From: a virus | Strand: one strand, 5' to 3' | Virus record (IMG/VR): IMGVR_UViG_3300033153_004457 | Location: 7,122 to 71,121 of that record | DNA: 64,000 bases | In this document: in pieces, positions 2,470-63,518 of the stretch | How positions within the stretch are numbered: position 1 is the stretch's first letter | Layout of the letters: the number at the start of each line of letters is the position of its first letter | Notes under the pieces: generated by a model | What the model saw: the letters and a program-made list of their open reading frames with translations, nothing else | The model's database searches: none | What the model was told of the DNA's origin: nothing | Translations under genes and position numbers: made by a program

Positions 2470-3540
2470 TTAAAGCTCTGCGTCTGCTTCGTAAATGCCT
2501 CTTACTTGTAATGACTCCCCAACAGATGGAGCCCAACCAGATATTCCACTCACATAGAAAGCTGCCCCGTCTACCGTTTTGGTTGCGAAACTCGGAGCAT
2601 ATTCAGCAGTTACATTTCCCTTCGTCCACTCCCAAACAGCAGTGAAATCGTCTACTCGCTTGTAGCCAATCATGCCCGGTGCGACTCTCATAGTCGTGGG
2701 GAATTCGAGACTCCCCCAATCAGCAACATTTGCCCCGGTAACAATGACAGAGCCACGGTATAGATTATTGATTTTGACGAAATACCGCTGACACAAAGCA
2801 AGCTCTTGTCCATACGGACGTGGTACGAACGGGGTCGCTGTGTTGCCCGGTTCGAGCTTGACACCCGTGATACGGAATATTGCGGTTGCGCTGTCTGTCC
2901 AATCCACATTGTTCGGTGAACCTACTTGTGCGTTGAGCGGCTCCGTAACCCATTCATCCATCGGCTGTGCGGTTTGTTTATTGGAGCCTACAGCCAGAAC
3001 TATTCCAATAGCAATTCCTATTCCGGTCCATTCGTCCCATACAATTAGCGAATCTGCAAACGGTATAACGATCTCTTTCTTCTCCCACACGTTTGCCTGA
3101 TTGATCGTCATTTCGTGGTAGAATTGTGTGGCCCACGTAGCACCTTTCAAGAACACCGTGTAGATACCGACCTTGGAAGACTTGACCCAGAAGGACAACA
3201 CGCCTGTCTTGTCGTGTAATACTTTCGAGTCATACCCTTCTATGTTGTAGCTGAGGAACACTCTGGAATCGGCACCCGCTGAACCGATCTCTTTGTTTTC
3301 TATTTGTGCCGAACTAGAAAACCCGTCTGGTGCGTCTCCCGAACGAGCGACAATTGGCCTTGTTGAAAATCCGTTGTCCTTCTGATACCAACGAAAACGA
3401 TCTACGGGGTGATGATACTCGGCATCATTCAACGTGAACGAACTGCCCCGTTGTGCAATCCGCATGTCACCGTTGATGATGACGTTGCGGTCCCAATACA
3501 GGGCCTCACGCGGGTCGTGTAGGTTTGCTTGTGCGTCCAT
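2470..3540 (-). CDS. Receptor-binding/fibre head protein, paralog 3
   Basis: RNVIINGDMRIAQRG...ITGVKLEPG...ELALCQRYF...ADAEL signature of carbohydrate-binding-like fibre domains. Confidence 0.75.
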   Translation of the reverse strand: MDAQANLHDPREALYWDRNVIINGDMRIAQRGSSFTLNDAEYHHPVDRFRWYQKDNGFSTRPIVARSGDAPDGFSSSAQIENKEIGSAGADSRVFLSYNIEGYDSKVLHDKTGVLSFWVKSSKVGIYTVFLKGATWATQFYHEMTINQANVWEKKEIVIPFADSLIVWDEWTGIGIAIGIVLAVGSNKQTAQPMDEWVTEPLNAQVGSPNNVDWTDSATAIFRITGVKLEPGNTATPFVPRPYGQELALCQRYFVKINNLYRGSVIVTGANVADWGSLEFPTTMRVAPGMIGYKRVDDFTAVWEWTKGNVTAEYAPSFATKTVDGAAFYVSGISGWAPSVGESLQVRGIYEADAEL

Positions 3541-3556: not shown

Positions 3557-4603
3557 TTAGAAGTCTGCGTCGGCTTCCCAATTGAAACCAATTCTTCCTT
3601 CTCCCGAAGAAGAAGCTCTCCGCATTTGGAACACGACATTATTCAAATTGTAGACGACCCAACTCGCTTCGTTGGAACCCCATCCACCATGGGTTACATT
3701 GTGAACAAGGTCATCCCCGCGTGTCACCGCCCAGAATTCAAAACCCGGTGTCGTTCTCATTGGTATGGGAAAAACGAAACTGTTGGCTATCCTGGCCGGT
3801 AGCGCATCCGAATGGTACACCATCCAAAATCCGCTGGTACTCTTGGCCATTATTTGTAAGTACCGTTGACACAGTGCAAGCTCACTTTGGATGTCCAGGC
3901 CAGCCCTGCGGAACGGTGCTTCTGTGCGGTCTCCTAACAGGAGTTGTGCGCCGCCGAATAGGAATTCGTTGTCAACATGGTCCATGAAGTTGACTTGGTT
4001 TGCTGTCGACCACTTGCTCGTTTCTGGTATCCACTGGCCGGGTGATCCTGTTTGAAAGGCACTTCCGGCCATGAAAGCAATCATGACTTGTACCCCTGTG
4101 CCAGTAGTAACATCCCATACACCATCGGCGTCAAATGTCACCACGAAGTTCTTCCGCACCCACTGATTCAACTCGGACGCTTCGATTACCATTTCAGTCA
4201 CGTATGACCGACTAGATGCGTTCCTAAATGTTACGCCATACGTCCCTTCTTTGTTCGTCTTGACCAGCAAGGAAAGCGTGACTTTCTGGTTTTTCAGATT
4301 CGCAAAATCGTACCCTTCTACCGCTTGATAAAGGGTTTGGAAATCCGACGACCCAACCGAGGCATCTATCACCGTGCAATCAAGTTTCATTGAGTACACG
4401 GAATTGAAACCGCTCAAGCTGAACGGTGGTACGTCAGTCGAACGGGTCCATGTTCGGCTGAATCCCCCTCCGTGTGACTGTTTCCAACGGTCTGCAACGT
4501 AGCCGTTCACCGGCAAACCGCTCGTTCCACGTTGCCAGAAATCCATCATGCCGTTTATGATCCAGTTGCGTTCATGTCGATCAATTCTCGGTGTCAAGCT
4601 CAT
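3557..4603 (-). CDS. Receptor-binding/fibre head protein, paralog 2
   Basis: RNWIINGMMDFWQRG...ELALCQRYL...ADADF. Confidence 0.75.
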   Translation of the reverse strand: MSLTPRIDRHERNWIINGMMDFWQRGTSGLPVNGYVADRWKQSHGGGFSRTWTRSTDVPPFSLSGFNSVYSMKLDCTVIDASVGSSDFQTLYQAVEGYDFANLKNQKVTLSLLVKTNKEGTYGVTFRNASSRSYVTEMVIEASELNQWVRKNFVVTFDADGVWDVTTGTGVQVMIAFMAGSAFQTGSPGQWIPETSKWSTANQVNFMDHVDNEFLFGGAQLLLGDRTEAPFRRAGLDIQSELALCQRYLQIMAKSTSGFWMVYHSDALPARIANSFVFPIPMRTTPGFEFWAVTRGDDLVHNVTHGGWGSNEASWVVYNLNNVVFQMRRASSSGEGRIGFNWEADADF

Positions 4604-7197: not shown

Positions 7198-8145
7198 TTA
7201 CAATTCTGCGTCTAATGAAAAATGATAACCGGCCACGTCTTCAACCCACACGGCTCTTCCGACGTTCAAAGGCTGCTCTCCGGCAGGAACGATCCACATC
7301 CTACAAGACCTTGTACCCGATTCTGCAATCCCTGCGGAAGTAGAATTTACCCAAGAACCCCATAATTCGACATGTGTCTGCCCGCTGATATGGGCCGTCG
7401 GGGGTATTCTCATTTCTGGATAGCGCAAGGTACCGAAAAACGAATATCCCAGATACATATAACCTGATACGATCATCTCTCCACGGTTTGCGATGCGGTT
7501 GTAATACCGTTTACATAACAAGGCTTCGTCTGCTGTCAACCTTGGTATAAAGGGGGATGGCACCGTTCCAATTTCCACTTTGACACCTGTAAATTCGATG
7601 TAGTCGCCAATGGTAACGGGTGCCAATCCACCTGTTTCAGATGATATCCAAAGGTGGACTTGAACCTGTGTTGCCACTGCACTTAGCGTTACGGGGAGTA
7701 CAAGCCGTTGCCAGCTTTCGTCGCCGGGATGCGTGGTGTCTTTTGGATGTGACGACACGCCATCGCTCAACATCAATCTTGCATACGGTGTGTTTGATTT
7801 GACATATGCTGACACAACAACGGGAAGACCGGCCAACAGATCGTAGTCTTCAATCATCTGTGATGCCCCATTAACAGCATCAAAGGCATCGTCTATCAGT
7901 GCTATCTTTATCGACTTACTACCGGACAGTTGCGGCGGTTGCGCGACAGAGACCTGCTGAATAGAACCATCTTCGCCTATCTCTTTCGTTTTCCATCTAT
8001 CGAGTGAATAAGCACCTTCATTGGCACCCAAAGCACTATCAGTGACAGGACTTGTGTAGTCACCACGCTGTGCGATTCGCATGTCACCGTTGATAATCCA
8101 GTTGTTCCGGTCCCTACCAAGAACCGCCAATAAGTTTCTATCCAT
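7198..8145 (-). CDS. Receptor-binding/fibre head protein, paralog 1
   Basis: NNWIINGDMRIAQRG...FTGVKVEIG...EALLCKRYY...LDAEL. Confidence 0.75.
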   Translation of the reverse strand: MDRNLLAVLGRDRNNWIINGDMRIAQRGDYTSPVTDSALGANEGAYSLDRWKTKEIGEDGSIQQVSVAQPPQLSGSKSIKIALIDDAFDAVNGASQMIEDYDLLAGLPVVVSAYVKSNTPYARLMLSDGVSSHPKDTTHPGDESWQRLVLPVTLSAVATQVQVHLWISSETGGLAPVTIGDYIEFTGVKVEIGTVPSPFIPRLTADEALLCKRYYNRIANRGEMIVSGYMYLGYSFFGTLRYPEMRIPPTAHISGQTHVELWGSWVNSTSAGIAESGTRSCRMWIVPAGEQPLNVGRAVWVEDVAGYHFSLDAEL

Positions 8146-43244: not shown

Positions 43245-44183
43245 TCAATCGTTGTTTAGACTTTCCACTTGAGCGACACCACCTATTGAAAAACCCGTTA
43301 GCTCTTCGGTCTGAGCTTGTTCCCACAAGTCATCATCGTGCAGACGTATCTTTAGAAGCCAAGTTCCTTTTTTGATCTTGCGCTTCGTCCCGTCCGCCTT
43401 GGTAACGCTGAATGCTACCGGAGCTAAAAATGTTTCGAGTACACTTACTTGGTCGTCAATGAGGGTTTCGTGCATCAGCCCAATGGAACCGTTTGACTGC
43501 TCCATCCAGTAGTGAGCGGCCTTCTTGATGTCGACTGCGGCGTAAATGTCTTCTTCCGCATCGAACTCATTCGGCACCAGAACTTCACCGTAAACGATGC
43601 GCTCTTCTTCGTCTTCCGCTTTGAAAATTGGAACGTAAAAAGAAACGTCACACACCTCGACCGTACCGTCAGGAACTTCTCTTCGCTTGACGAGCGTGGT
43701 ATTCAGGCGTGATCGCATTTTTGAAACTTGTGAAGTGCTGTCGTCCACCACCGCAATAAGATCATTAACAGCTACGTCTTTGACCTGCATATGTGGTTCG
43801 GAAAGGGAGATGATAATCTCAAGGATTGCCTTGAATAAATCGAACCGCTCAGAGAATGCATCTTTCAATGCGGTGAGCTGTTCGTCGGTTGGTCCGCTTG
43901 AGAGTACGAGTTCACCTTGATCTTGGATGTTATCGAAGTTCGTTTCCTGTTCGTCTCGCAAAATTCCAACCATCGCAACTACACCCGCGTCCAAATCAAA
44001 TGACTGAAACAGGGGAGCGATGAAACGGTTTTTCGCAAGTTGCAAATAGTCAATGTTACCTCGCAAGTCCAACACGGAAGACGTGTTGTACTCGTTGTCC
44101 AACATCCACTTCTCGGTGACAGTGCGGTCTTCAAAGAACTCTTTGGAAAACCTTACACTATGTATTCCTAAGCGTGCCGTCAT
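43245..44183 (-). CDS. XkdF-like prohead protease
   Basis: RIVYGEVLVP, IKKAAHYWM, IGLMH, GTWLL, LTGFSIGG; start moved to MTARLG. Confidence 0.85.
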   Translation of the reverse strand: MTARLGIHSVRFSKEFFEDRTVTEKWMLDNEYNTSSVLDLRGNIDYLQLAKNRFIAPLFQSFDLDAGVVAMVGILRDEQETNFDNIQDQGELVLSSGPTDEQLTALKDAFSERFDLFKAILEIIISLSEPHMQVKDVAVNDLIAVVDDSTSQVSKMRSRLNTTLVKRREVPDGTVEVCDVSFYVPIFKAEDEEERIVYGEVLVPNEFDAEEDIYAAVDIKKAAHYWMEQSNGSIGLMHETLIDDQVSVLETFLAPVAFSVTKADGTKRKIKKGTWLLKIRLHDDDLWEQAQTEELTGFSIGGVAQVESLNND

Positions 44184-44190
44184 GGTGTCC

Positions 44191-44508
44191 CTACTCTGTG
44201 GCGATGAACCAAAATTCGTCGTCGGCCTTGTTGACAGCATCGGTTGTTCCGACCTTGAAGCCGTAAGCGCCGTCTCGAATGGCTTCTTCATCCAAGAATG
44301 TGATTCCCTCTCCTGCGGTCATGGCCGATTGCGTACCGTCCGTGATGGTTTTCTCGCCACCGTCTGTCATGCCTTCCATCGCTTCGCCCGACATGTGTGA
44401 TGTCTTGTTGACAACCTTCACATGGCGTGGTGCGAAATCGAGCGGGATGGTTTGCTCGGCACCGGTGCCTTTGAATGACCCCGTGGTTTTCAGAACTCCG
44501 CTTCCCAT
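44191..44508 (-). CDS. Small beta-rich putative capsid cement/decoration protein
   Basis: TGSFKGTGA.Q.I.LDFAPRHVKV pattern; AGGAG SD. Confidence 0.5.
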   Translation of the reverse strand: MGSGVLKTTGSFKGTGAEQTIPLDFAPRHVKVVNKTSHMSGEAMEGMTDGGEKTITDGTQSAMTAGEGITFLDEEAIRDGAYGFKVGTTDAVNKADDEFWFIATE

Positions 44509-44576
44509 AATGGTGCTCCTTTAAAATTGGTTTACTGAAAAGTATTCCCAAATAACTCTGGAAAATACACTATTTC

Positions 44577-45560
44577 TCATGCCATGTCCACGTAACATTC
44601 ACATCTGAAATGGAATGATGGCAGTCTTGGCTTTCCGTCGTTCAATAGTTTCTCGGCTGCGGCCTCTTTGGCGGGCGAGTTCGCACCTGGCACGTCGAAA
44701 TGGAATGAAGGCTGTGCGGCTTTCAAGTCCTCTTTCGTTTCAGCGTTCAGCATTTTTTCCAGATGGTTCAAGCCGCGACGAACCGTGAACTCTTGACCGT
44801 CCATGCTGATACAGCCAATACATGTCCGGTTCGTCTTGAGACTGCGAACGACATACCGCATAGCGCCCGCGTCATTCATGGCGTACAGCGAAGACGATGT
44901 ACGCGAAAACTGAGCCTGTGTTTCTGCCAAGCCGCTGAAATATTGTCCAGCCGTTCCACGGAAACCCGGTGGTATCACTTTGCTCTCAAGAGCACCGGGT
45001 TTCAAGCGAAAGGCTTTCTCCAAGTCCTTCTTTACTGCGACACCCGTTTCTTCCAGGGTAAGACCGCGCTCGAACACGTTGACCCGCACGCTTTCTGCGA
45101 CGGTCGCCTGTACACTTTCCGAGTAAAACGAAGCGGTGGACCAACCCGTTTGCCGCTCGATGGCTGCAATGGCTTCTGTGTCGGCTTCAGACCAGAAACC
45201 GATGCCAATTTTCGGTGCCTTTTTGGCTTTCTCTACAGCCTTTAATTTCATACGTTTGATGGCATCGACTTTCGCGAAGCGGTACAGGTATTCTATGTCC
45301 GCTGAAATTCGCTCTTCGACGTTGCCTTGGAACTGGCCCATACGTTTATCTACCCTTGCTAAGAAAGCGTTGACAGCCGACTTCGTGCGCTTCAGTTTTC
45401 CGGCTTGCTTTATCAGCGGAAGGGCCAAGTCACGCCATTCAGATGTGAGGTAAAGACCAAGGGCAGGTATGACGGTTGTATCCTTCGGCTCTCTCTTCTT
45501 CCTTTTATCGACGAGTATAGCAAATATCTTTAATGTTTTCAATCGGTCTTGTACGTTCAT
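44577..45560 (-). CDS. Head morphogenesis protein (SPP1 gp7/Mu F-like)
   Basis: RTCIGCISMDG and PSFHFRCEC motifs. Confidence 0.8.
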   Translation of the reverse strand: MNVQDRLKTLKIFAILVDKRKKREPKDTTVIPALGLYLTSEWRDLALPLIKQAGKLKRTKSAVNAFLARVDKRMGQFQGNVEERISADIEYLYRFAKVDAIKRMKLKAVEKAKKAPKIGIGFWSEADTEAIAAIERQTGWSTASFYSESVQATVAESVRVNVFERGLTLEETGVAVKKDLEKAFRLKPGALESKVIPPGFRGTAGQYFSGLAETQAQFSRTSSSLYAMNDAGAMRYVVRSLKTNRTCIGCISMDGQEFTVRRGLNHLEKMLNAETKEDLKAAQPSFHFDVPGANSPAKEAAAEKLLNDGKPRLPSFHFRCECYVDMA

Positions 45561-45575
45561 ACCTGTACGGCCCTC

Positions 45576-46730
45576 TTACCATTTGCCAGAAAGTGCCAGC
45601 TTTTTGATTTTCTCGAAATCGTTCCTGTCGGCCATGTCTTTTCCAAGGAACTTTTTGACCTTTACGAAGTTTCTACCGACGAACCTTACCATCGCAGAAA
45701 ACTCTTCTGGGCTACTTCCAAACATACCTATTTGGAAATCAAAACAGTTAATAAAATCGACAGGACCGGCTCGTAATGTGAATAACTTCTTAGCGTAAAG
45801 ATGCCACCCTTTCGCTGTACCGCCCGTCTCTAGGTTCCTGTAGATCATCGGTTTCACTTTATGATTATGATTTTTGGTAATGACATTCAGTCGATGCCAG
45901 ATTTCTTCCGGCGTATCATTGAAACCGTAAAGCATATACCAACGGCCTTCGCTTTTCATTCCGTGTTTCGTTATCAGGTCCAAAGTCTTGGTAGCGGCTT
46001 TCTCTACACCTTTACTGTCCCAAGAAAACCGAACAACCGGTATTTGTTGTCGGTGTCTTTTGAACAATTCGACAAAGCGTTCATCCTTCGCGAACATTCT
46101 ACAATCGAGTCCTTGGTTGAAATCGATTGTCATTCCACGCTTGGTCAGTTCGGCTAGAACGCCCTCTACCCAATCGTAACCGCATGCCAGTATGTTATTG
46201 TCCATCGAAATAAAATGCGTGTGGCCTGGTGCCAAATAGTTTTTCCAGTGCTCATTCTTGTACAGTTTGCCTTCTATTTTCGGCACGACACACCACGGAC
46301 ATTTCCGAGTGCAGCCACGAGAGGTAAAACCAAATGAGAAGTCCATACCTAATGCCTCGTAGCAGGGCGTCTCATGCTCGAACTCAGATTGGAGGCCCGT
46401 AATTACTTCCGCACCGGGAACGTGTTGCTCGAACAGTTCTGGTTTCAGGGTAGCCGTCACACCTCCGATTTTGATTTTCGCTTTTTTGAACTTGCTCTGA
46501 AAGGACCGGATGTAGCCGATGTCCTTTTCCAGATTGAAAAGAAAGATCGGAGAAAAACAAATCTCGTCCGGTACGAAATTCTTAGGTGTCCTCTTGCACG
46601 AGGTAATTCTTACATCGTTACCGATTCTCTTTTCATACGAATACAGTTTGAGCAGACCGAGTGGTGATGGGAACTGCATTCCCTTGCTCTTCGTTGAGTG
46701 ATCGAGATGTACTAACAGAGTCTTTGTCAT
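45576..46730 (-). CDS. Radical SAM protein with B12-binding-like N-terminus, copy B
   Basis: SPLGLLKL, IKIGG, TSRGCTRKCPWC (CxxxCxxC), MDNN, YMLYGF. Confidence 0.85.
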   Translation of the reverse strand: MTKTLLVHLDHSTKSKGMQFPSPLGLLKLYSYEKRIGNDVRITSCKRTPKNFVPDEICFSPIFLFNLEKDIGYIRSFQSKFKKAKIKIGGVTATLKPELFEQHVPGAEVITGLQSEFEHETPCYEALGMDFSFGFTSRGCTRKCPWCVVPKIEGKLYKNEHWKNYLAPGHTHFISMDNNILACGYDWVEGVLAELTKRGMTIDFNQGLDCRMFAKDERFVELFKRHRQQIPVVRFSWDSKGVEKAATKTLDLITKHGMKSEGRWYMLYGFNDTPEEIWHRLNVITKNHNHKVKPMIYRNLETGGTAKGWHLYAKKLFTLRAGPVDFINCFDFQIGMFGSSPEEFSAMVRFVGRNFVKVKKFLGKDMADRNDFEKIKKLALSGKW

Positions 46731-46739
46731 TCGCTTCCC

Positions 46740-47888
46740 TTACCATTTACCAGAGTTTGCCAGCTCTCTGATTCTCTTGAAATCGTGCTCGTCGGCCAGA
46801 TCCTTTCCGATGTACTTTTTGACCTTCGCGTGATTCCTACCGACGAATTTCATTAGGTTCATGAATTCTTCAAAGTCCTTTCCGAACAGACCTCTCTGGA
46901 AATCGAAACAGTTGATGATGTCAACAGGACCGGCTCTCAGGGTGAACAACTTTTTGGCGTGCGAGTACCAACCGGTTGGAGCCTTACCCGTTGTCAAGTC
47001 TCTGTAGATCATCGGCTTGACTTTGTGTCCATAGTCGGTGATAGTTTTTATTCTATTCCAGATTTCTTCCGGCGTGTCTTTGAAACCGTAAAGCATATAC
47101 CATCGACCTTCGCCGCTGTACTTGTGAGACTTCATCATTTTCAAAGTCTCAAGAGCGGCCTTTGACGAGGCTTTGCTGTCCCACGCAAACCTGATGATGG
47201 GCATATGTTTCTTATACTTTTTGAAAACTTTGATGAAGCCTTCGTCTTTTACGAACAGCCTACAATCCAACGCTTGATTGAAATCGACTGTCATGTTTCT
47301 TTCTGACATCTCGGATAGAACTTCTTCCATCCACTCTGGCCCGCACGCGAGAACGTTGTTATCTATCGCGATGAAATGCTTGTGACCCGGTGCCAAAGCG
47401 TTCTTCCATTTTTCGTTCGTGTAAATCTTACCTTCGATTTTTGGAACGACACACCACGGGCATTTTCTGACGCATCCACGCGATGTAAAACCGAAAGAGA
47501 AATCCATTCCCATCGCCTCGTAACAAGGCGTTTCATCGTCAAACTCAGGCTGAAGGCCGGTGAATATTTCGGCCTCTGGAATGTGCTCTTTGAAAAGCTC
47601 TGGTCTCATGGTAGCCATTACGCCACCGATTTTGATTTTCGCTTTCTTGAACCTGTTCTGGAAAGCGCGAATGTAACCGATGTCCTTTTCTGCATTGAAC
47701 AGGAACAGCGGTGAGAAGCAAATCTCATCGGGCGTGAAATCCTTCGGCGTTATTTTACACGAAGTGATCCGCACGTCATCGCCAAGCCGCTTCCGGTACG
47801 AGTACAGTTTGAGTAGGCCAAGCGGCGATGGAACTTGCATGCGCTTGCTCTTCGTCGAGTGGTCAAGGTGTACTAACAAGGTCTTCAC
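46740..47888 (-). CDS. Radical SAM protein with B12-binding-like N-terminus, copy A
   Basis: TSRGCVRKCPWC; start moved to GTG 47888 (GTGA overlap, GGAG SD, aligns with copy B start). Confidence 0.85.
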   Translation of the reverse strand: MKTLLVHLDHSTKSKRMQVPSPLGLLKLYSYRKRLGDDVRITSCKITPKDFTPDEICFSPLFLFNAEKDIGYIRAFQNRFKKAKIKIGGVMATMRPELFKEHIPEAEIFTGLQPEFDDETPCYEAMGMDFSFGFTSRGCVRKCPWCVVPKIEGKIYTNEKWKNALAPGHKHFIAIDNNVLACGPEWMEEVLSEMSERNMTVDFNQALDCRLFVKDEGFIKVFKKYKKHMPIIRFAWDSKASSKAALETLKMMKSHKYSGEGRWYMLYGFKDTPEEIWNRIKTITDYGHKVKPMIYRDLTTGKAPTGWYSHAKKLFTLRAGPVDIINCFDFQRGLFGKDFEEFMNLMKFVGRNHAKVKKYIGKDLADEHDFKRIRELANSGKW

Positions 47889-48496
47889 TTTTCGCTCCGT
47901 AGCAAGTCGAGGACTTTTTGCCATGGGTCCGGTTTTCGTTTTTCCAATTCGGCTTCGATGTCTTGTACGAGGTCCGCAGGAATGTCGAGAATCTTACCCG
48001 TATCAGTACCGAAGATTGAAACGTCTGTCGGGTTCATACCATCGTTTTCCAGCGTTTTCTTCATCTCGTCAAGATCGATGTCCGAGAAGTCGAACGATTC
48101 CATCACCTCGTCGAAGTCGAGCTTTGCGTCTTTCATGTAGTCCGTGAGGCTTGTGTCGGACATCTTTCCGTACTGACTTGTGATTGCAAGTAGCTTGTGC
48201 TTCGCCTCTTTCATGGACTTCGCTTCTACCCATATCACGGGGAGCTTTGGAACTTCGTGTCCCTCTTCGCCTAGACGCGCAATGGTTCTATGGCGTTGAT
48301 GTCCGTCGAGCAAATAATGTTTTCCAGCATTACGCCAGATAAAAAACGGTGCCGAGAAACCGTACTTGAGAATTTCCTTACTGAGCTTTTCGTAATTCTC
48401 TTCCGACAGGCTTTTCAATTCACCCTGGAATGGCACCATTTCGTCGAGGGCGAGTACGTCCGCGCCCTTGCATTTGATTCTGATTTTCGTTGTCAT
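47885..48496 (-). CDS. ParB/Srx N-terminal domain protein
   Basis: LSKEILKYGFSAPFFIW...LLDGHQR motif; coupled to portal stop. Confidence 0.8.
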   Translation of the reverse strand: MTTKIRIKCKGADVLALDEMVPFQGELKSLSEENYEKLSKEILKYGFSAPFFIWRNAGKHYLLDGHQRHRTIARLGEEGHEVPKLPVIWVEAKSMKEAKHKLLAITSQYGKMSDTSLTDYMKDAKLDFDEVMESFDFSDIDLDEMKKTLENDGMNPTDVSIFGTDTGKILDIPADLVQDIEAELEKRKPDPWQKVLDLLRSEK

Positions 48497-50301
48497 TTTT
48501 CAACCTCGTCGTCTGGAAATTGGGCAGATGGATGTATGAGCGCATCGGCCAGCGGGTCGATGCCAAGCTCGATACCAAGGCTATGCAACAGTATCTTCTC
48601 GATCTTCTCGAATGCGTTACCGTCATCGGCCTTTGCTACCGGTTGCTTTGGCACTTGTCCGGAATTCGGTGCGACCGTTCCCGTTTGTTGGTTTCCTGCT
48701 GTAGCTCCTGCGAGACCGACGAGAGTAAGGGAAAGTGGAATGTCAGGATCGAAACCGTGTTTGTCTTTGTCGTATTTCGGTATCTCACGTCCGAGAACAT
48801 CGCTCATAACTTCGACTGCGAGATTCGGAGATACCGCGCCCGCCTTGTCGGTTCCAAGAATCTTCACAAGGTCTTGGTCGTTCGTGACGTTCGCGCTGTT
48901 CGACTTGAACGTGTGGTGCTTCATGTTGAATTCGGTTCGCAAGAAACGATTCATCCATACATCGAAGTCACCGCGCTCTGGGCTGAACACTTGCTCATCC
49001 GCGAGCTTCCGGCTTTCCTGTGCGGTCGAGCGGTTGTAGTCTTCCGACTTGCCAACGAAGATCGGGGGCAACCGAAAAGACCGGCGTACCTTTTCGCCGT
49101 TGTTCTTGTCGTAATCCTGAAAGAGTTGGTCTTCTTTCTGTGCGCCCGACACATCTTTGATTTCCATCTTCATCGTGCCGGGGTTGATCTGTCCTTCTTC
49201 TGCGGGTTCGGCCTCGATGATAAGGACGCTTGAGCGGTTACTGTTGCCCGCTACACGGGTTTCGATGAACTCTTCGACACGCTTTACACTGTCGCCTGTG
49301 AGCTGTCCGTTAGACACCAAGATAATCATGGAAGGAATGTTATTGTTCTCGAACGTCACGAAGTTGATTTCGTCCGCGCTTCGGGAACCGTATATGCTAA
49401 AGAGGTTTCCGATGAATCGCGGTAAGCAATACGGCGTTCGCGATGACTTGATGGCACCGAAAGTCTTGGCCGAATTCGCATACGGCTTGCTCACTTTCGT
49501 GCCGTCTTTCAGTGTTCCGTTCGTGACGGCTTGACCGGTCTTCGGGTCGATGTCCCGTGGGTCTCCCCACTCTTTCAAATAAACAATTTTCTCGGCTACC
49601 TTGTGTGCGATGCGACGAAAACGTTTCTTGAAACGCCGCTCTTCCATTTTCTTGGTAGACTTGTTGTAATACTTGATACGAGCTTCCGTGAACTCCTTGT
49701 CCATCTTGGTCCAGCGGGCAAGGTGCGGTTCGATTCGCATCAAGGAACTCACACCGGCTTTCTTAGCATACGGTATGATTTCCCACCAGCCATCACCCGT
49801 CTCTTCGGTGTCCTGGCGTGTCATCTTTCTCAGCTTGGTAATGTCCTCGTCGAAGTTCACGTTGTCGAGAAACCCTTCGAGGTTTCCACGCTCTGCTAGA
49901 ACTTCCTTTTTGATCGCAGCGGTTCTTTCGGCTTCGTCCATGGCCGTCTCTACCAGGCGATACCCGAACCCGTCGATGTTCGTAACCATCGCATCAACGC
50001 ACTGTCCAAGCTCTGTATTATTTTCACGAAGCGTGGAAAGGTGGAGCGTCGGGTACGGTGGGTGAATGATATTGCCGTGACCGCTGAACGCCGGGTCTTG
50101 CTCCATCTGTTGTGATTGCTCTTCGCCAAGCGCCCTGACAATGGTGGCTTTCAGAACCTTCATGTTTTCGTGACTTTGCTTGGAACCGCTACCCGCTACT
50201 TTACCGACTGCGGTTACGCTTCCCTTTGATGCGCTGTCGACCTTTGCTGGTACGGCTGACGCCGATAGTTTCGCCGGTGCTGGTTTCGTTTTTCGAGCCA
50301 T
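48493..50301 (-). CDS. Portal protein (PBSX-like)
   Basis: TGDGWWEI, FENNNIPSMIILVSNG, FRLPPIFVGKSEDYNRSTA; start moved to MARKTKP. Confidence 0.9.
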   Translation of the reverse strand: MARKTKPAPAKLSASAVPAKVDSASKGSVTAVGKVAGSGSKQSHENMKVLKATIVRALGEEQSQQMEQDPAFSGHGNIIHPPYPTLHLSTLRENNTELGQCVDAMVTNIDGFGYRLVETAMDEAERTAAIKKEVLAERGNLEGFLDNVNFDEDITKLRKMTRQDTEETGDGWWEIIPYAKKAGVSSLMRIEPHLARWTKMDKEFTEARIKYYNKSTKKMEERRFKKRFRRIAHKVAEKIVYLKEWGDPRDIDPKTGQAVTNGTLKDGTKVSKPYANSAKTFGAIKSSRTPYCLPRFIGNLFSIYGSRSADEINFVTFENNNIPSMIILVSNGQLTGDSVKRVEEFIETRVAGNSNRSSVLIIEAEPAEEGQINPGTMKMEIKDVSGAQKEDQLFQDYDKNNGEKVRRSFRLPPIFVGKSEDYNRSTAQESRKLADEQVFSPERGDFDVWMNRFLRTEFNMKHHTFKSNSANVTNDQDLVKILGTDKAGAVSPNLAVEVMSDVLGREIPKYDKDKHGFDPDIPLSLTLVGLAGATAGNQQTGTVAPNSGQVPKQPVAKADDGNAFEKIEKILLHSLGIELGIDPLADALIHPSAQFPDDEVEK

Positions 50302-50381
50302 GCTTTTCTCCGTCGTTGGTGTTCCCGTCGTGAACATTCAAATTACATTTAGGATACATCGCTTTCTGACATCCTTCAATA

Positions 50382-51869
50382 TCATATTACGCCGAACGTT
50401 TTTCGTGGCTTTCTCATTCGCAGGAACGACCCCATTACCGCGAAGTCCAGAGCGTCGAACTCATCGTCGTGTTCCGCGTCTGGAAATGCTATCAAGTTAT
50501 CTGTAAACTCAGCCACGCCGTATTTTGGAAAGTACATGAGGCCGTTCTCGAACTTGGCAGAGAGCCGCCACGCCCGTACCACCTTGTCCTTGTGGGTCCA
50601 GAACGGTTTCACTGGTACGTCTGTCAACGCTGCAAGAATTTGAGCTTGCGAATCCTGGTACGCGTTCGATTCGATGAAGACCCGTAACGGGTGGTACTGG
50701 TCGCTCTTCTGTCTTATCTTCGAGAAGGTCTGCAAGAAAGACAGGCGTTCGTGGAACATGTCGATCAGAAACATTTGACCGAATTCGTTTTTACCAATTG
50801 TCGCAATCGCAACGAAATCGGCACTTTCCTTTTGAGATATGGCGAGGTCAACGCCCATGAAAATACGAAGGTCCGGTGGTATGATTTCATAGTGTTTGAT
50901 GTGCTCATACTTGAATATTTTACCTTCCATTCCATCGGTATTGTTCTGATAGCCCGCATCGAAGATGATCTTGCCAGACGTGCGCCGCTTGGCCTTCAGC
51001 CATTCGATACTCAACTTTTCTTCCCAAATCGATTCGCCGTTCGGTCGTATCGCCGGGTAGATATTGTAAACGAAATCCATTTCGCTTGGATTGCTAATCG
51101 GCATGCGCTTACCGTCTTCACCTCTAACGGAGGAAACGGAAATCAGGTACTCGTACAGGTCGTTCGGGTAATACCGTGTACCATGACCCCACATCCGGCC
51201 ACCGGGTTCGAGTGTCGGGTCGAGAACTTTGAGATACCATATGCGGAGTTTTTCGCGCTGCAATTCGGTGCGCGAATTCTCTTCGTCTACGAGGTCGTCG
51301 AACAGTATCAAATCATAGTGACGACCGACGACAGCGCCGCCAACACCGAGACACGTAATGTTCGATTCCTTTGCGAAGATTTTACGTTCCTTGACGTTGA
51401 TCTCATCGTTGGACCACTTGTTACCCTTCATGTTGCCGAACATCATGATAAACTTTTCATTCGATTCCATGTGATTGACAATCTCACGCAGGAATACTTC
51501 GGCTTGGGTTTGAGTGTTCGACGATATGAGGATTCGTATATTTGGGTTTCTCAGTAGCTCGTAGAGGGCGCGTGCTGCAACGAGTGCAGTTGATTTACCA
51601 ACACCACGAGGTGCGAGTACGAGTGTTCTGTAATGCCTTTCCTGTCTGCGGAGCATGAGGCGGTGGCACTGTGCTACCTGATAGCCAAGGACTTCCTTCA
51701 TCAATATACATACGCGCTCATACGCCGGGATGTCATCGCCTAGTATCAGGTCGCGTAGCTCATCGACTTCGGCAGAGCGCAACATATTTAATGCGCGTTC
51801 GTCCTCTTCTCTTTCTTCAAGTGCCTTGTCGATGTCGGGCGCTTGCTCTGTGTCGTGCGCCTCACTCAT
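50382..51869 (-). CDS. terL: Terminase large subunit
   Basis: Walker A APRGVGKS, Walker B LILFDD, GTRY, GVDLA, HDDEFDA nuclease motifs. Confidence 0.93.
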   Translation of the reverse strand: MSEAHDTEQAPDIDKALEEREEDERALNMLRSAEVDELRDLILGDDIPAYERVCILMKEVLGYQVAQCHRLMLRRQERHYRTLVLAPRGVGKSTALVAARALYELLRNPNIRILISSNTQTQAEVFLREIVNHMESNEKFIMMFGNMKGNKWSNDEINVKERKIFAKESNITCLGVGGAVVGRHYDLILFDDLVDEENSRTELQREKLRIWYLKVLDPTLEPGGRMWGHGTRYYPNDLYEYLISVSSVRGEDGKRMPISNPSEMDFVYNIYPAIRPNGESIWEEKLSIEWLKAKRRTSGKIIFDAGYQNNTDGMEGKIFKYEHIKHYEIIPPDLRIFMGVDLAISQKESADFVAIATIGKNEFGQMFLIDMFHERLSFLQTFSKIRQKSDQYHPLRVFIESNAYQDSQAQILAALTDVPVKPFWTHKDKVVRAWRLSAKFENGLMYFPKYGVAEFTDNLIAFPDAEHDDEFDALDFAVMGSFLRMRKPRKTFGVI

Positions 51870-52066
51870 GTGCGAATTTCCACCTTCTCCAAACGCTTGC
51901 CAAGCGCGGCGTTCAGCAGACCACTGAGTGTGATTCTACCGTTCGTCTTGCCGTCTTTCGCAAGCTGATTGTTCTTGATGGTAACGTATAACATCGCCTT
52001 GTTCTTTAGGTCGATGTCCATGTTGAATGTGGTGGGTACTGTTTTATTCCCCTTGGCCCTTGTCAT
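51866..52066 (-). CDS. Ribbon-helix-helix-like DNA-binding protein
   Basis: TTFNMDIDLK...TLSGLLNAAL; GGAGG SD; coupled to terL. Confidence 0.5.
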   Translation of the reverse strand: MTRAKGNKTVPTTFNMDIDLKNKAMLYVTIKNNQLAKDGKTNGRITLSGLLNAALGKRLEKVEIRT

Positions 52067-52163
52067 TGTTTCCTCCATTCGTATTGCCGTATGTAGATAA
52101 ATACAGCAATAGAATGTGGAATGTCAAGGAGAGTGTTTCACGGTGGGCTGTGACGCGGGAGTA

Positions 52164-52200
52164 CCGGTCGACCTCGCCATGCACTAACGAGGTCGACCGG
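52164..52200. repeat. Perfect 13-bp inverted repeat (CCGGTCGACCTCG-11 nt-CGAGGTCGACCGG)
   Basis: Seen directly, intergenic at the middle/late boundary. Confidence 0.8.
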
Positions 52201-52213
52201 AGAGAGGAACCGC

Positions 52214-52678
52214 CTAGAATTCGATAGGCGGTAACATGGCTGGTGGTAGGTGCTTTGCGAGACTTACGAAATTGTGAATGAATTGTCTTGCGTGCTCTTC
52301 CGTTGCGTACAAGGTGCTGGTCAGGTCGTAGCGGTCGACACCGACACGTTCGCCGCGCCTGATGGCGGGCCAGTGTGGGACCGCTTCGGGTTTCTCGTAG
52401 AGCTTCCAGTGGTGTCGCTCTGCATCGAAGGTGCGGACGTGTGATTTACCAATCACGCATCGGTCGCGGTTCTTCATCGTCCTACCCCACTTGAGAGCCC
52501 AACCGTACACCTTGCCGCCGCTGAACCCTATGATGTGGACGATGGAACCGTTTTCGCTGACGGCATCGAATTCGTGTTTGTTCATCTCCCATATGAAGCC
52601 GAGAGGAACCCACGTTTCGTCGTTGCCAAGGTTATACTTTTCTTGAATCGAATCTGTGTTCACGTTGCCTCCTTTCAT
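52214..52678 (-). CDS. Hypothetical protein
   Basis: Coupled to ligase stop; true start may be a few codons downstream. Confidence 0.55.
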   Translation of the reverse strand: MKGGNVNTDSIQEKYNLGNDETWVPLGFIWEMNKHEFDAVSENGSIVHIIGFSGGKVYGWALKWGRTMKNRDRCVIGKSHVRTFDAERHHWKLYEKPEAVPHWPAIRRGERVGVDRYDLTSTLYATEEHARQFIHNFVSLAKHLPPAMLPPIEF

Positions 52679-61112: not shown

Positions 61113-61678
61113 GCGGCAAACATTTCCTGAAACGCTGTAGAGCCTGTCAGAAGCCGATGGGCCAGTTTCAACAACCGGCGACCGAGTACGAAATCGTGTG
61201 GGGCGTATGCGATGAGTGTAGGCTGTCAGGCGTGTATATCCCGCAACTCAAGGACAACGAGGTCCACTGTTCGTTCTGCGGCAAGCCTACCGACTACACC
61301 GGAACCCGCTTGTGCAATCCGTGTTGGGAAAGCGAGAAGGGTTTGGACACCTGGCTACGATACCCGGAAGCAAGGCATCACACGTCGAAACTACTTCGTC
61401 AGCACATCGACATCAACGTAGACCAATTCGTAATTTTCAGCCGTGACCACATCGCAGAGTACAACCGAGTGCAGACCGTTCACAAGCGGGTCTTGATGCT
61501 ACTCGATGAGCGGGAAGAGGCCGAACGAGAGAGTCATTGGGAGCACGACAACGCTATAAGAGCCAGTTGGTATTCCGAACTCGTCGACCGTCTTGCAGAA
61601 GTCATGAAGTGGGAACCCCGCAAGAGGCATGCTGTACCCGCACCAGAGAGGAAAGGAGAACCAAATGGTCAAGCGTGA
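61109..61678 (+). CDS. Cys-rich Zn-finger protein
   Basis: Four CxxC motifs; ATGA coupling. Confidence 0.6.
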   Translation: MSGKHFLKRCRACQKPMGQFQQPATEYEIVWGVCDECRLSGVYIPQLKDNEVHCSFCGKPTDYTGTRLCNPCWESEKGLDTWLRYPEARHHTSKLLRQHIDINVDQFVIFSRDHIAEYNRVQTVHKRVLMLLDEREEAERESHWEHDNAIRASWYSELVDRLAEVMKWEPRKRHAVPAPERKGEPNGQA

Positions 61679-62348
61679 AGTCACATTCCACGTCACCGCG
61701 AACCTCAAAGAGCTTATGGGACAGGACATGCAAGGCATGGACGAGGACGAAAAGGAAGCCTACGCAAGCGGAATCGGCAAACGATATTTCATGCTGTGCG
61801 AAGAGCTTCAGAAGTTCAAGGCCGGTTCTGAACGGTATCATTTCGCAATGGCTCTCATCGAGAAAGCCTTTGATGGCAAGTCTAAGAAGGATTGGCCGTG
61901 TAAGAAGGGTTGCTGCGAATGCTGTAAAATGTTGGTCACTATCTCGTGGAGCGAAGCCGCGATGCTGGCCGATTACATGTTACGCCTACGGCAGACCGCA
62001 CCGCAGATGGCAATGATAACTATCAGTGAACTCCTTGCTATGCGCCGCCTACCGCGTGACCCCGACGATTGGTATGGACTTCCAGAAGGCGACCGGACTT
62101 GTCCTTTCTTAGATGAACGCCGTGGCCTCTGTCGCGTGTACGCAAACCGTCCGCTTGCTTGTCGCTCGTACTACGTTATCACAGACCCTTCGCTCTGCGA
62201 GTTGAAGAAAGAGAAAACGGTTGTCGGCGTGGTCGGGAATGCACTGGTCGAGCTTCTGTTCTCCGCTCTGAACAAGGTCGAGGGAACCGGCTCGATGGCT
62301 GACATGATTGTACGAGAGCTTGGACACAAGGGAGGTTTGGTATCATGA
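61665..62348 (+). CDS. YkgJ/CxxCxxCC cysteine-cluster protein
   Basis: CKKGCCECC, CPFL, CRVYANRPLACR; start MVKREV (AAGGAG SD). Confidence 0.88.
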   Translation: MVKREVTFHVTANLKELMGQDMQGMDEDEKEAYASGIGKRYFMLCEELQKFKAGSERYHFAMALIEKAFDGKSKKDWPCKKGCCECCKMLVTISWSEAAMLADYMLRLRQTAPQMAMITISELLAMRRLPRDPDDWYGLPEGDRTCPFLDERRGLCRVYANRPLACRSYYVITDPSLCELKKEKTVVGVVGNALVELLFSALNKVEGTGSMADMIVRELGHKGGLVS

Positions 62349-62785
62349 ACACGAGAGAAACAGAAAACGCAATTCTCAACCTCGCAAGACGGACGACCGA
62401 CACCGGTTTCAACGTCCGATTGCTCACTCAGCTCTACGGAGTAAATCGAGACAAAGCGTGGTCCCTCCTCAGTCGGATGGTTAAGGCCGGTGCCTTGATA
62501 AGTCCCAAGCGCGGCCTCTATCAGCTCCCAAAGGGCGTTGAGCAAGGCAACCTCAGAGCCTCCAAGGAATTTTTCGAGAAAGCCTTTGAGGGTTATGACG
62601 TGCCGAAAGACCTCCGAACCGCATCCGAACGAATCGTTGCATCATATGGTATCAGAGGGATATGCGACCCGATGTACATCACGAATGTCATCGCGAACGA
62701 AATCGGACGTGGTGACGGCCAAGGCAATTTTTATTCGGACATCGAAGCCTGGAAAGACGCTCTGCAACAGAAACACAAGGACTGA
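62345..62785 (+). CDS. Hypothetical protein with winged-helix-like N-terminus
   Basis: LSRMVKAGALI...RGLYQL. Confidence 0.5.
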   Translation: MNTRETENAILNLARRTTDTGFNVRLLTQLYGVNRDKAWSLLSRMVKAGALISPKRGLYQLPKGVEQGNLRASKEFFEKAFEGYDVPKDLRTASERIVASYGIRGICDPMYITNVIANEIGRGDGQGNFYSDIEAWKDALQQKHKD

Positions 62786-62786
62786 C

Positions 62787-63518
62787 ATGCCATACCTCCA
62801 AATCACTACCGTCTGTAACATGACGTGCGCTCACTGCTGCTTCGATTGTAGCCCGGTCGGTGAACATATGCCATACGATGTGTGGAAACGCATTCTAGAA
62901 ATCAGCCCGGTCTATGTCACCATCGGTGGCGGCGAACCGACATGCCACCCACACTTCTGGGACATGCTGTACGAAGCTCTGGACGCGGGTAAGCAAGTAT
63001 GGATGACGACGAATGGCAAGCGTACTGATGACGCTCTGCGACTTGCCGAAGAGGTACACCACCGCAAGAACAAGCTCACCGTCCTACTCTCGCAAGACCA
63101 ATACCATGAACACGTTGACATGGAAGTGATCGAGGCGTTCGACCAAAAGTCTTTCGACGTGGACATAGAGAGGAATCAAGTAGCCCTCATCCGTAACAAA
63201 TACATCGGTATCAACGGCGCGGGCAACAAAAGCCTTGTACGCACAGGGCGTTCCGAGCGCGGCGACGAAACGAAATGTATCTGTCCGACGAATATGGTGA
63301 AACCGAATGGCGACGTTCACGAATGTGGATGCATCGGCGCGAAACGCCTTGGTAGCGTGATGCTCACGATGCCAAAGTTCATTCCTTTGCCGGGTGAATT
63401 CGACGAAATGCCAGACATAAACCTCACATACGAACGGCCTATCGATTACCTTGGCGGTGCCTCGTGTAGCTTCGGACTCGAAACCACATTCAAATCGAAA
63501 GAGGAAAAACACATATGA
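62787..63518 (+). CDS. Radical SAM protein with twitch/SPASM-like C-terminus
   Basis: CNMTCAHCC, GGGEPT, TTNG, C...VKPNGDVHEC; start moved to MPYLQITT. Confidence 0.88.
   Translation: MPYLQITTVCNMTCAHCCFDCSPVGEHMPYDVWKRILEISPVYVTIGGGEPTCHPHFWDMLYEALDAGKQVWMTTNGKRTDDALRLAEEVHHRKNKLTVLLSQDQYHEHVDMEVIEAFDQKSFDVDIERNQVALIRNKYIGINGAGNKSLVRTGRSERGDETKCICPTNMVKPNGDVHECGCIGAKRLGSVMLTMPKFIPLPGEFDEMPDINLTYERPIDYLGGASCSFGLETTFKSKEEKHI

Follow-up and report, generated by a model that had tools for sequence, protein, structure and literature searches.

A cassette of three genes in the phage genome of IMG/VR record IMGVR_UViG_3300033153_004457, inserted between the portal gene and a MuF-like head morphogenesis gene, encodes a standalone protein of the ParB/Srx fold and two paralogous radical S-adenosylmethionine (rSAM) enzymes, hereafter copies A and B. 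We propose that it is a ParB-assisted DNA-modifying module built on B12-type rSAM enzymes, with the two paralogs subfunctionalised, a reading on which our judgement is evenly poised. In the lineage of this phage, the ParB-rSAM pair is a conserved cassette adjoining packaging genes. Two different branches of the ParB superfamily adjoin the rSAM enzyme in two settings, phage and cellular, and the contexts of the rSAM family as a whole point to a link with DNA modification and defence, not with packaging. Coordinates (Table 1) are positions in the window, the 64-kb stretch analysed here out of a 71,121-bp single-contig genome.

The phage is contractile-tailed, with sheath, baseplate and tape-measure genes recognised in a PHROG scan of the genome, which also holds a primase, a DnaB-type helicase, an NAD-dependent ligase and a sliding-clamp-like protein. 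The cassette and its flanks lie on the minus strand in the order terminase large subunit (TerL), portal, ParB-like protein, rSAM A, rSAM B, MuF-like protein, XkdF-type protease fusion and major capsid protein. A preliminary description, made from the letters alone, had placed the three genes between portal and head morphogenesis genes and had noted their coupling by overlapping stop and start codons. The order is confirmed by the open reading frames (ORFs) of the minus strand and by the identities of the flanks, and the couplings by reading the junctions in the window sequence, where the TGA stop of the portal gene overlaps the ATG start of the ParB-like gene (ATGA) and the TGA of the latter overlaps the GTG at 47888 (GTGA). 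Copies A and B are separated by 9 nt, and B lies 15 nt from the MuF-like gene. An alternative start of copy A, the ATG at 47924, lies 36 nt upstream of the GTG and would give a protein of 394 aa; the start at GTG 47888 fits better and is probably the one used, because the resulting 382 aa match the length of the database entry P0001 as well as the start of B and of the relatives in the alignment. The 327-aa product downstream is assigned to the MuF/gp7-like proteins by its Atlas language-model features (0.96 to Phage_Mu_F-bearing clusters) and by its structure (TM score 0.71 to a PF04233 cluster); it has no PHROG match, and its sole profile match is weak (TIGR01641, E 0.047). As described earlier, the rSAM copies are AT-richer than their surroundings, if modestly, with a GC content of 46.8% in A and 44.8% in B against 50.9% in the window, and a profile of 0.43-0.48 in the copies versus 0.49-0.53 in the flanks. 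Scanning positions 44000-52500 yielded 8 promoter-like sites for 7.0 +/- 2.6 expected, no excess over shuffled sequence, and 13 terminator-like sites for 10.3 +/- 3.6 expected, so that a separate transcription unit is not indicated. Since neither signal exceeds the shuffled expectation, we read the three genes as part of the late operon.

Both enzymes carry the cluster motif C-x3-C-x2-C (C139/C143/C146 in A, in the numbering of the 382-aa protein, and C140/C144/C147 in B), whose cysteines do not vary in either alignment of relatives, the one of 71 or the one of 25 sequences; a large protein collection provided 127 relatives of the window rSAM. The AlphaFold2 model of rSAM A, computed from the alignment of 71 relatives (predicted local distance difference test, pLDDT, 93.9; predicted template modelling score 0.89), consists of a Rossmann-like domain at about residues 14-130, an rSAM barrel that starts from the cluster motif and a helical C-terminal domain. 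Compared over its full length with VIA-align, the model resembles MgmA (Z 21.4), AprD4 (20.6), CysS (18.4), TsrM (17.7), OxsB (17.7) and TokK (12.4). Taken by itself, the N-terminal domain (residues ~10-130) resembles the domains that bind B12 in AerR and photocobilin (Z 10.5-10.9), and residues ~140-340 match rSAM cores including those of PFL-AE, viperin, QueE and LipA (Z 9.4-10.5). The enzyme thus has the same two-domain core and CxxxCxxC motif as the class B enzymes MgmA (9ccb), TsrM (6wte), CysS (9n1d), OxsB (5ul4) and TokK (7kdy) and the look-alike AprD4 (6fd2), at Z 12-21. It differs from them by an identity of only 10-15%, by its compactness, with 382 aa for matched chains of 417-730 residues, and by the motifs DNN, NQ..D and D237, which are invariant in its own family and peculiar to it. 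Sequence profiles of the relatives agree with the model, since at E <= 0.01 Pfam Radical_SAM is found in 44 of 71 and the B12-binding domain PF02310 in 42 of 71 (best E 5.3e-11). The classical B12-binding signature ends in an SxL...GG pair with a spacing of 26-28 residues; copy A has S59-P-L61 and G88-G89 with 26 residues between, S59, G88 and G89 being invariant in the alignment of 25 sequences. The DxHxxG part of the motif is absent. Searches with single sequences were less telling: the NCBIfam scan gave matches of 12-15 bits only, around the cluster motif, and the search of solved structures with a single rSAM a chance-level match only (MecA, E 0.43); the family profile found weak matches to solved structures at the cluster motif (RimO 0.0094, MgmA 0.045).

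On the strength of the model and the relatives, A and B can be filed as a divergent, compact branch with class-B (B12-type) architecture. AprD4 is a cobalamin-free dehydratase with the same fold, and cobalamin binding by A and B is for this reason rated only as likely. The preliminary description had called them cobalamin-dependent class B enzymes, often C-methylases, and had suggested looking for a cobalamin-binding Rossmann domain; a Rossmann domain of the B12-binding type was found in the model, and the class B assignment stands for the architecture (fold, PF02310 in relatives, SxL...GG), while cobalamin use and methylase chemistry are only what we infer from it. To our knowledge, the substrates of the known class B rSAM enzymes are small molecules, peptides or proteins, and DNA is not among them.

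The methylthiotransferases MiaB, MtaB and RimO are also close to the model, with Z 18-18.6 over ~310 residues, and MtaB comes first in Foldseek; together with the basic character of the rSAM proteins, this could mean that the enzymes modify tRNA or rRNA in the way of MiaB/RimO or Cfr and reprogramme host translation. We see a very slim likelihood in such a role, given that the gene contexts are related to DNA, not to translation, that the C-terminal domain is helical, without TRAM-like strands, and that no N-terminal cysteine is conserved in the 71 or the 25 relatives. There being no conserved cysteine outside CxxxCxxC, the auxiliary [4Fe-4S] cluster that three N-terminal cysteines bind in methylthiotransferases is absent, and a methylthiotransferase identity was rejected; TIGR00089 and TIGR01125 score only 12-15 bits, with cut-offs of 251-357. 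The isoelectric points (9.31 in A, 9.40 in B, all three domains being basic) weakly favour an action on DNA.

The two rSAM genes, which the preliminary description had reported as intact, alignable copies, are identical at 266 of 383 positions (69%) from end to end, with one gap (BLASTP E=0) and CxxxCxxC in both. Identity by codon position is 75/87/50%, and the synonymous difference pS of 0.75 is saturated for a nonsynonymous divergence dN of 0.20, which indicates that the duplication is old and that both copies have been held under purifying selection. In agreement, of the 62 alignment columns in which conservation among 69 further family members reaches 75% or more, A keeps 59 and B 57, three departures being common to both. 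Neutral evolution of one copy, which the preliminary description had named as a refutation, is thus not seen. The differences are uneven, with a nonsynonymous difference pN of 0.10-0.13 in the N-terminal third against 0.21-0.25 in the C-terminal half. In a FastTree phylogeny of 186 members of the family, whose branches carry local support values only, A and B group as sister sequences (local support 100%). Among the matches listed, no tandem rSAM duplicate occurs in 157 other phage and metagenome loci with a called rSAM (in L019 a single rSAM gene is split in two), nor in 73 named-genome loci with a called rSAM, although in L202 another copy lies at a distance of one gene and in the opposite orientation. 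We propose that the duplication is specific to the lineage of this phage and that both copies were retained. The phage has a third rSAM gene elsewhere (Table 1), preceded by a gene for a CxxCxxCC metal-binding protein; it was considered as a relative of A and B and rejected (BLASTP E 0.14).

The partner protein was recognised in the preliminary description as ParB-like, which its PHROG matches and its fold bear out. The matches are to phrog_498, which represents the N-terminal segment of ParB-methyltransferase fusions (E 8.9e-12), and to the ParB-like phrog_620 (E 2.9e-10), and the N-terminal part of the PADLOC model MTase_II also matches (E 1.2e-5). No match to Pfam ParB_N (PF02195) was obtained at E <= 0.01, and TIGR00180 gives 15.8 bits for a cut-off of 58.45. 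In the AlphaFold2 model (pLDDT 82.8), a basic N-terminal domain of the nucleoside triphosphate (NTP)-binding type with a DGHQR motif, at about residues 1-125, precedes an acidic helical tail, the C-terminal 78 residues having an isoelectric point of 4.05. Foldseek aligns the model with Noc, KorB, ParB, PadC, pNOB8 ParB-N and sulfiredoxin (probability 1.00, best E 1.7e-5). These results suggest that the protein is a divergent member of the ParB/Srx superfamily. Three of 38 homologues of similar length (P0126, P0129, P0144) extend into an N6/N4 methyltransferase with a DPPY motif. A helix-turn-helix (HTH) domain was not recognised in the model, which shows short helices and the acidic tail after the N-terminal domain, by inspection and not by a formal HTH test; PHROG and Pfam scans of the genome revealed no ParA-like gene. 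The predicted complex of the ParB-like protein with rSAM A scored 0.00, in a run without controls, a value that speaks neither for nor against their interaction.

To assess the association of the two proteins, ORFs were called in all fetched loci with a simple ORF caller, and ParB-like genes were searched with an iterated profile that started from three ParB-like proteins, a narrower profile built from homologues of the window ParB only having missed locus L084. The IMG/VR, metagenome and named-genome listings are samples and not a census. Closer relatives were sought in IMG/VR with single-protein queries, which gave only L164, a fragment of this same phage 5.3 kb long, the contig of P0003 (L166) and a distant locus (L165). 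Among the matches listed, 9 of 157 other loci have a ParB-like gene immediately upstream of the rSAM gene and in the same orientation, and these are concentrated on the tree. A and B fall inside a clade of 30 rows with 100% local support, and in all four distinct loci of this clade with context (the window, L166, L084 and the identical L002 and L003) the ParB-like gene is directly upstream with overlapping ends, while enzyme identity to the window falls to 49% (L166), 42% (L084) and 36% (L002/L003). The pair is followed by genes for the small terminase, large terminase, portal and capsid protease in L166, by small terminase and DNA methyltransferase genes in L084, and by an HTH protein and the large terminase in L002/L003; the cassette of the window sits after the portal gene and not before terminase genes as in these three loci. 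In a second clade, the ParB-like gene is upstream of the rSAM gene in 4 of 9 rows. The survey suggested in the preliminary description therefore found the overlapping pair throughout this clade, and the packaging link that it had proposed holds there; it does not hold for the family as a whole, which is found in methyltransferase, DNA-metabolism and defence contexts instead. In one of the four rows of the second clade (L015:5399-8982), ParB-like and rSAM genes are followed by genes for a 492-aa family-2 glycosyltransferase and a small-terminase-like HTH protein, which hints at sugar elaboration of the mark.

The three genes could also be unrelated passengers, the ParB-like protein serving packaging, partition or as a nuclease and the rSAM enzymes being an independent moron with no shared function. 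Standalone ParB-like proteins and accessory genes are common near phage terminase genes, the ParB sequences of related loci can hardly be aligned with one another, and most family members have no ParB neighbour. Nevertheless, adjacency and the overlapping stop and start were kept in all four loci despite enzyme identities as low as 36-49%, and a second ParB-superfamily branch, the DpdB/DndB-like proteins, independently adjoins the cellular enzymes, which makes mere co-residence very unlikely in our eyes. Another reading starts from the position of the cassette between the portal and MuF-like genes, in the head-gene block: the enzymes would act on a protein of the virion (portal, MuF-like, scaffold or capsid) while the head is being assembled, as the B12-rSAM methylases MgmA and Mmp10 act on methyl-coenzyme M reductase, and the glutamine methylase MgmA is the best structural match of rSAM A. 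Against it, in the nearest relatives the pair precedes the small terminase gene and is not among the head genes, the family is found elsewhere in replication, DNA-modification and defence contexts without head genes, and the ParB partner is of the methyltransferase-fused type. We judge it quite unlikely; virion proteins had been named beside DNA as targets in the preliminary description, and nothing in the family contexts points to them.

The wider distribution of the family in phages was examined in IMG/VR, which holds at least 481 rSAM relatives. Two genes on each side of the rSAM gene were scanned with Pfam in 75 loci (those of L001-L080 with a called rSAM), amounting to 285 proteins. A DNA methyltransferase domain (N6_N4, D12, C5, MT-A70 or Dam) is present in 18 of these 75 listed loci, three of which (L038, L039, L040) are identical copies, and the methyltransferase gene is most often the one directly upstream of the rSAM gene. 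Other recurrent neighbours are 3'-phosphoadenosine-5'-phosphosulfate reductase (three loci), ThyX (three loci) and the nucleoside-deoxyribosyltransferase-like DUF4406 (four loci), further ones being terminase genes, RusA, primases and polymerases; in L050 the rSAM gene adjoins a dGTP/dATP diphosphohydrolase-like gene. Named phages with the rSAM gene among early or DNA-metabolism genes include Marinitoga camini virus 1, LoVEphage, a Methanomassiliicoccales virus and Clostridium phage phiCT453B. At L041:6031-8712, the family rSAM is followed by two genes that pass Pfam Radical_SAM (E 3e-10 and 1e-12), making three rSAM genes in a row.

Some of these neighbours, namely ThyX, DUF4406 and the dGTP/dATP diphosphohydrolase-like protein, would equally suit enzymes acting on free nucleotides or another small molecule, whether in a pre-replicative modification, in an AprD4-like cobalamin-free dehydration or in making or destroying a signalling or antiviral nucleotide, with the ParB-fold protein as a partner that binds or hydrolyses NTPs. 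AprD4 comes second among the structural matches, and ParB-fold proteins bind CTP, ATP or GTP according to the survey of Kaljevic et al. (2025, PMC12704722). We consider a free substrate unlikely, as the strongest recurrent partners of the family act on DNA (methyltransferases, DpdB/DndB-like, PbeA/PbeC, Type IIG and MORC-like proteins) and as the phage of the window has no nucleotide-metabolism genes beside the cassette.

The association with DNA-acting proteins is also found in cellular relatives, whose hosts include Methanosarcinales, Methanoculleus, Methanoperedens, Bathyarchaeia, Dehalococcoidia, Acidobacteriota and Nitrospirota. For 80 listed metagenome loci, neighbours within four genes were clustered by BLAST and one representative per cluster was annotated; for the named-genome loci, 73 of 80 of which had a called rSAM, neighbour labels within four genes were transferred by BLAST. 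A DpdB/DndB-like protein of the ParB superfamily (PADLOC DpdB E 7e-32; Pfam DndB E 7e-22) was found at 10 of the 80 metagenome loci, directly downstream in all 10, a PbeC/DndD-like ATPase (E 2e-71) likewise at 10, a PbeA-like HKD-helicase (E 8e-210) at 5, a Schlafen/AlbA_2 protein (Pfam) at 7, a Type IIG methylase-nuclease (1191 bits) at 12, MORC-like HATPase_c_3 proteins (Pfam) in two clusters at 6 and 4, and a Mokosh-like helicase set (PADLOC) at 4. Among the 73 named-genome loci listed, the counts were 18 for MORC-like, 13 for DndB-like, 8 for ParB-like and 8 for PbeC-like proteins. The typical operon comprises a PbeA-like HKD-helicase, a small ORF, a PbeC/DndD-like ATPase, a Schlafen/AlbA_2 or PbeD-like protein, the rSAM and the DpdB/DndB-like protein, and it resembles a Pbe-type system in which the rSAM and a ParB-superfamily protein make up the modification module; loci of this kind include L116, L118, L122, L125, L127, L135, L146, L190, L207, L213 and L214. 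In a recurrent two-gene unit of archaea and bacteria, a MORC-like HATPase_c_3 protein of ~600 aa is encoded directly upstream of the rSAM (L104, L114, L117, L119, L124, L171, L177, L185-L187, L192, L198, L201, L209, L219). The Type IIG context (L088, L091, L094, L098-L100, L102, L107, L191) has genes for proteins of ~370 and 569 aa, the latter with a weak match to MADS mad8, then a 1077-aa Type IIG methylase-nuclease, sometimes a 468-aa protein, and then the rSAM.

In the mechanism that we infer, the ParB-fold protein would be an adaptor or activator that engages double-stranded DNA, comparable to the ParB proteins of thymine dioxygenases and to ParB-methyltransferase fusions, and would pass the DNA to the class-B-like rSAM enzyme. 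The [4Fe-4S] cluster held by C139/C143/C146 would cleave SAM to a 5'-deoxyadenosyl radical able to abstract a hydrogen from a base or sugar carbon, and cobalamin in the N-terminal Rossmann domain could then deliver a methyl or other alkyl group. The C-alkylated nucleotide would shield the packaged genome from host nucleases, and co-expression with the packaging genes, within the late packaging/head operon, would put the mark on DNA soon to be packaged. Paralogs A and B may serve two sequence contexts or positions, or two successive steps; they most likely differ in target or step, because their differences concentrate in the C-terminal half. The preliminary description had put forward sequential steps or a heterodimer, either of which may apply to this pair, the only tandem one among the loci examined. 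In cells the mark could provide restriction-type systems with a self label, while in phages it would protect the genome as orphan methyltransferases do. A bolder generalisation, which we regard as doubtful, is that the whole rSAM family forms an unrecognised class of DNA-modifying enzymes that write a carbon-linked alkyl mark, at a position beyond the reach of ordinary methyltransferases, under the guidance of ParB-superfamily proteins (ParB-like in phages, DpdB/DndB-like in cells). Cells would use it as a self label for Pbe-like, MORC-like and Type IIG-linked defence systems, and phages would have captured the enzyme together with its ParB partner as a disguise for their genomes, the twin enzymes of this phage writing two marks or serving two contexts.

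Several points weigh against a DNA-modifying module. The modifying activity is a prediction from gene context and fold. At the level of the enzymes, Pfam Radical_SAM (PF04055) stays below its threshold in A (17.1 bits) and B (16.7 bits, cut-off 29.5), PF02310 does not match the window's own A and B at E <= 0.01, and PADLOC gave 0 matches for these two rSAMs, as for five cellular rSAMs searched. As to structure, the best match, MgmA, methylates a protein, the second-best, AprD4, is free of cobalamin, and the RNA and protein modifiers MiaB, RimO and MtaB are nearly as close (Z ~18). As to the partner, ParB adjacency is a minority pattern in the rSAM family, the largest phage clade (59 rows) having an upstream ParB-like gene once, and the window ParB has 21% identity to that of L166 (E 8e-7) and no significant BLASTP match to that of L084; divergence among the ParB partners far exceeds that among the enzymes. 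The partner may have been swapped rather than co-inherited. The position within the head-gene block is also compatible with a virion-protein target, and no DNA methyltransferase or base-priming enzyme of a hydroxymethyluracil or hydroxymethylcytosine pathway was found in PHROG and Pfam scans of the 71-kb genome. Finally, neighbour genes come from a crude ORF caller, many labels rest on one representative per BLAST cluster, and neighbour counts are samples among the matches listed.

Comparison with known systems helps to place the cassette. The closest organisational parallel is a phage ParB-like protein without an obvious DNA-binding domain that is required by its cognate thymine dioxygenase (5mYOX) on double-stranded DNA, as reported by O'Toole et al. 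(PNAS 2026, PMC13229309). There too a phage ParB-fold gene adjoins a DNA-modifying enzyme, in pairs described in the same report as cognate-specific; the 5mYOX enzyme is an Fe(II)/2-oxoglutarate 5-methylpyrimidine dioxygenase, whereas those of the window are rSAM proteins, so that the likeness lies in the organisation, and ParB dependence and a DNA substrate are predictions for the pair of the window. ParB-methyltransferase fusions are enriched in phages, according to the survey of Kaljevic et al. (2025), in whose main text the term "Radical SAM" does not occur. The window ParB matches the N-terminal part of the ParB_N-N6/N4 methyltransferase fusions (phrog_498) and shares their niche beside terminase genes; it differs in being standalone and in that the next enzyme is a B12-type rSAM and not a methyltransferase acting by bimolecular nucleophilic substitution. 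Only two rSAM enzymes were known in 2021 to act on DNA, spore photoproduct lyase and gp53 of Pseudomonas phage M6; the latter, a spore-photoproduct-lyase-like isomerase of thymidine hypermodification that works on DNA after replication, was described as the first known case of a DNA modification installed by an rSAM enzyme (Lee et al., NAR 2021, PMC8989533). M6 gp53 belongs to the spore-photoproduct-lyase-like branch, has no B12-type domain and works on an already hypermodified base, while the window enzyme belongs to another branch; a tblastn search of phage records with the window rSAM matched 16 records, none of them M6.

The cellular relatives share operons with PbeA, PbeC/DndD and DpdB/DndB-like proteins, components of the PbeABCD or CxC-ABC-ATPase-DndE and the Dnd/Dpd systems, and PHROG and Pfam scans found no PbeA, PbeC/DndD or DndE-like genes in the window itself. 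The modification partners known for Pbe-type systems are phosphorothioation or cytosine methylation, according to PMC10853773, whose text contains neither "B12" nor "cobalamin" and whose sole mention of radical SAM concerns DndC. In cells, the rSAM is found in the place where Pbe-type systems otherwise carry the genes for these two modifications. In the published literature searched, neither the rSAM family nor its association with ParB, DndB or Pbe genes was found described. The cassette appears to belong among the phage DNA-modification modules with ParB-fold partners, and there is a real chance that its chemistry is categorically new.

Other features of the genome complete the picture (Table 1). 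The XkdF-type protease domain makes up the last 125 residues only of its protein, and the gene that follows, rich in long repeats, probably encodes the scaffold. Three paralogous tail-fibre genes may specify alternative receptor-binding proteins, and a protein that matches a DNA polymerase processivity factor also matches, over part of its length, a RusA-like resolvase family.

Table 1. The cassette, its flanking genes and other features of the window
Feature	Coordinates	Strand	Support
Terminase large subunit (TerL)	50382..51869	-	phrog_38, E 1.9e-87; Pfam Terminase_6N and Terminase_6C above cut-offs
Portal protein, 614 aa	48493..50337	-	phrog_12, E 1.1e-21; Pfam Phage_portal 27.6 bits, below the 39.1 cut-off
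ParB/Srx-fold protein, 203 aa	47885..48496	-	phrog_498, phrog_620, fold model
rSAM copy A, 382 aa from GTG	46740..47888	-	phrog_9298, E 7.1e-41
rSAM copy B, 384 aa, paralog of A	45576..46730	-	phrog_9298, E 9.2e-39
MuF/SPP1-gp7-like head morphogenesis protein, 327 aa	44577..45560	-	Atlas features and structure
XkdF-type protease fusion, 348 aa	43245-44291	-	PF14550, E 4e-26
Probable scaffold, 372 aa	42113-43231	-	Long Ala/Thr/Glu-rich repeats
Tail-fibre paralog	2470-3540	-	C-terminal third of phrog_4492, E 9e-42
Tail-fibre paralog	3557-4603	-	C-terminal third of phrog_4492, E 7e-35
Tail-fibre paralog	7198-8145	-	C-terminal third of phrog_4492, E 2e-32
DNA polymerase processivity factor, 407 aa	59273-60496	+	phrog_947, E 2e-51; residues 164-292, RusA-like resolvase phrog_3007, E 4e-11
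CxxCxxCC metal-binding protein	61629-62348	+	PF03692
Third rSAM gene	62538-63518	+	Pfam Radical_SAM, E 2e-9; partial PADLOC pVip (viperin) matches, E 5e-11

Taken together, gene context and predicted fold make the module a well-founded candidate. If the proposal is correct, a ParB-guided B12-type rSAM enzyme that writes on DNA would bring new chemistry to the repertoire of DNA modification, and the role of ParB-like activators would extend to a second superfamily of DNA-modifying enzymes. It would also put a name to the missing modification component of uncharacterised defence-type operons in methanogens, Bathyarchaeia, Dehalococcoidia, Acidobacteriota and others, and the twin paralogs of this phage would offer a natural experiment on how such enzymes choose their target.

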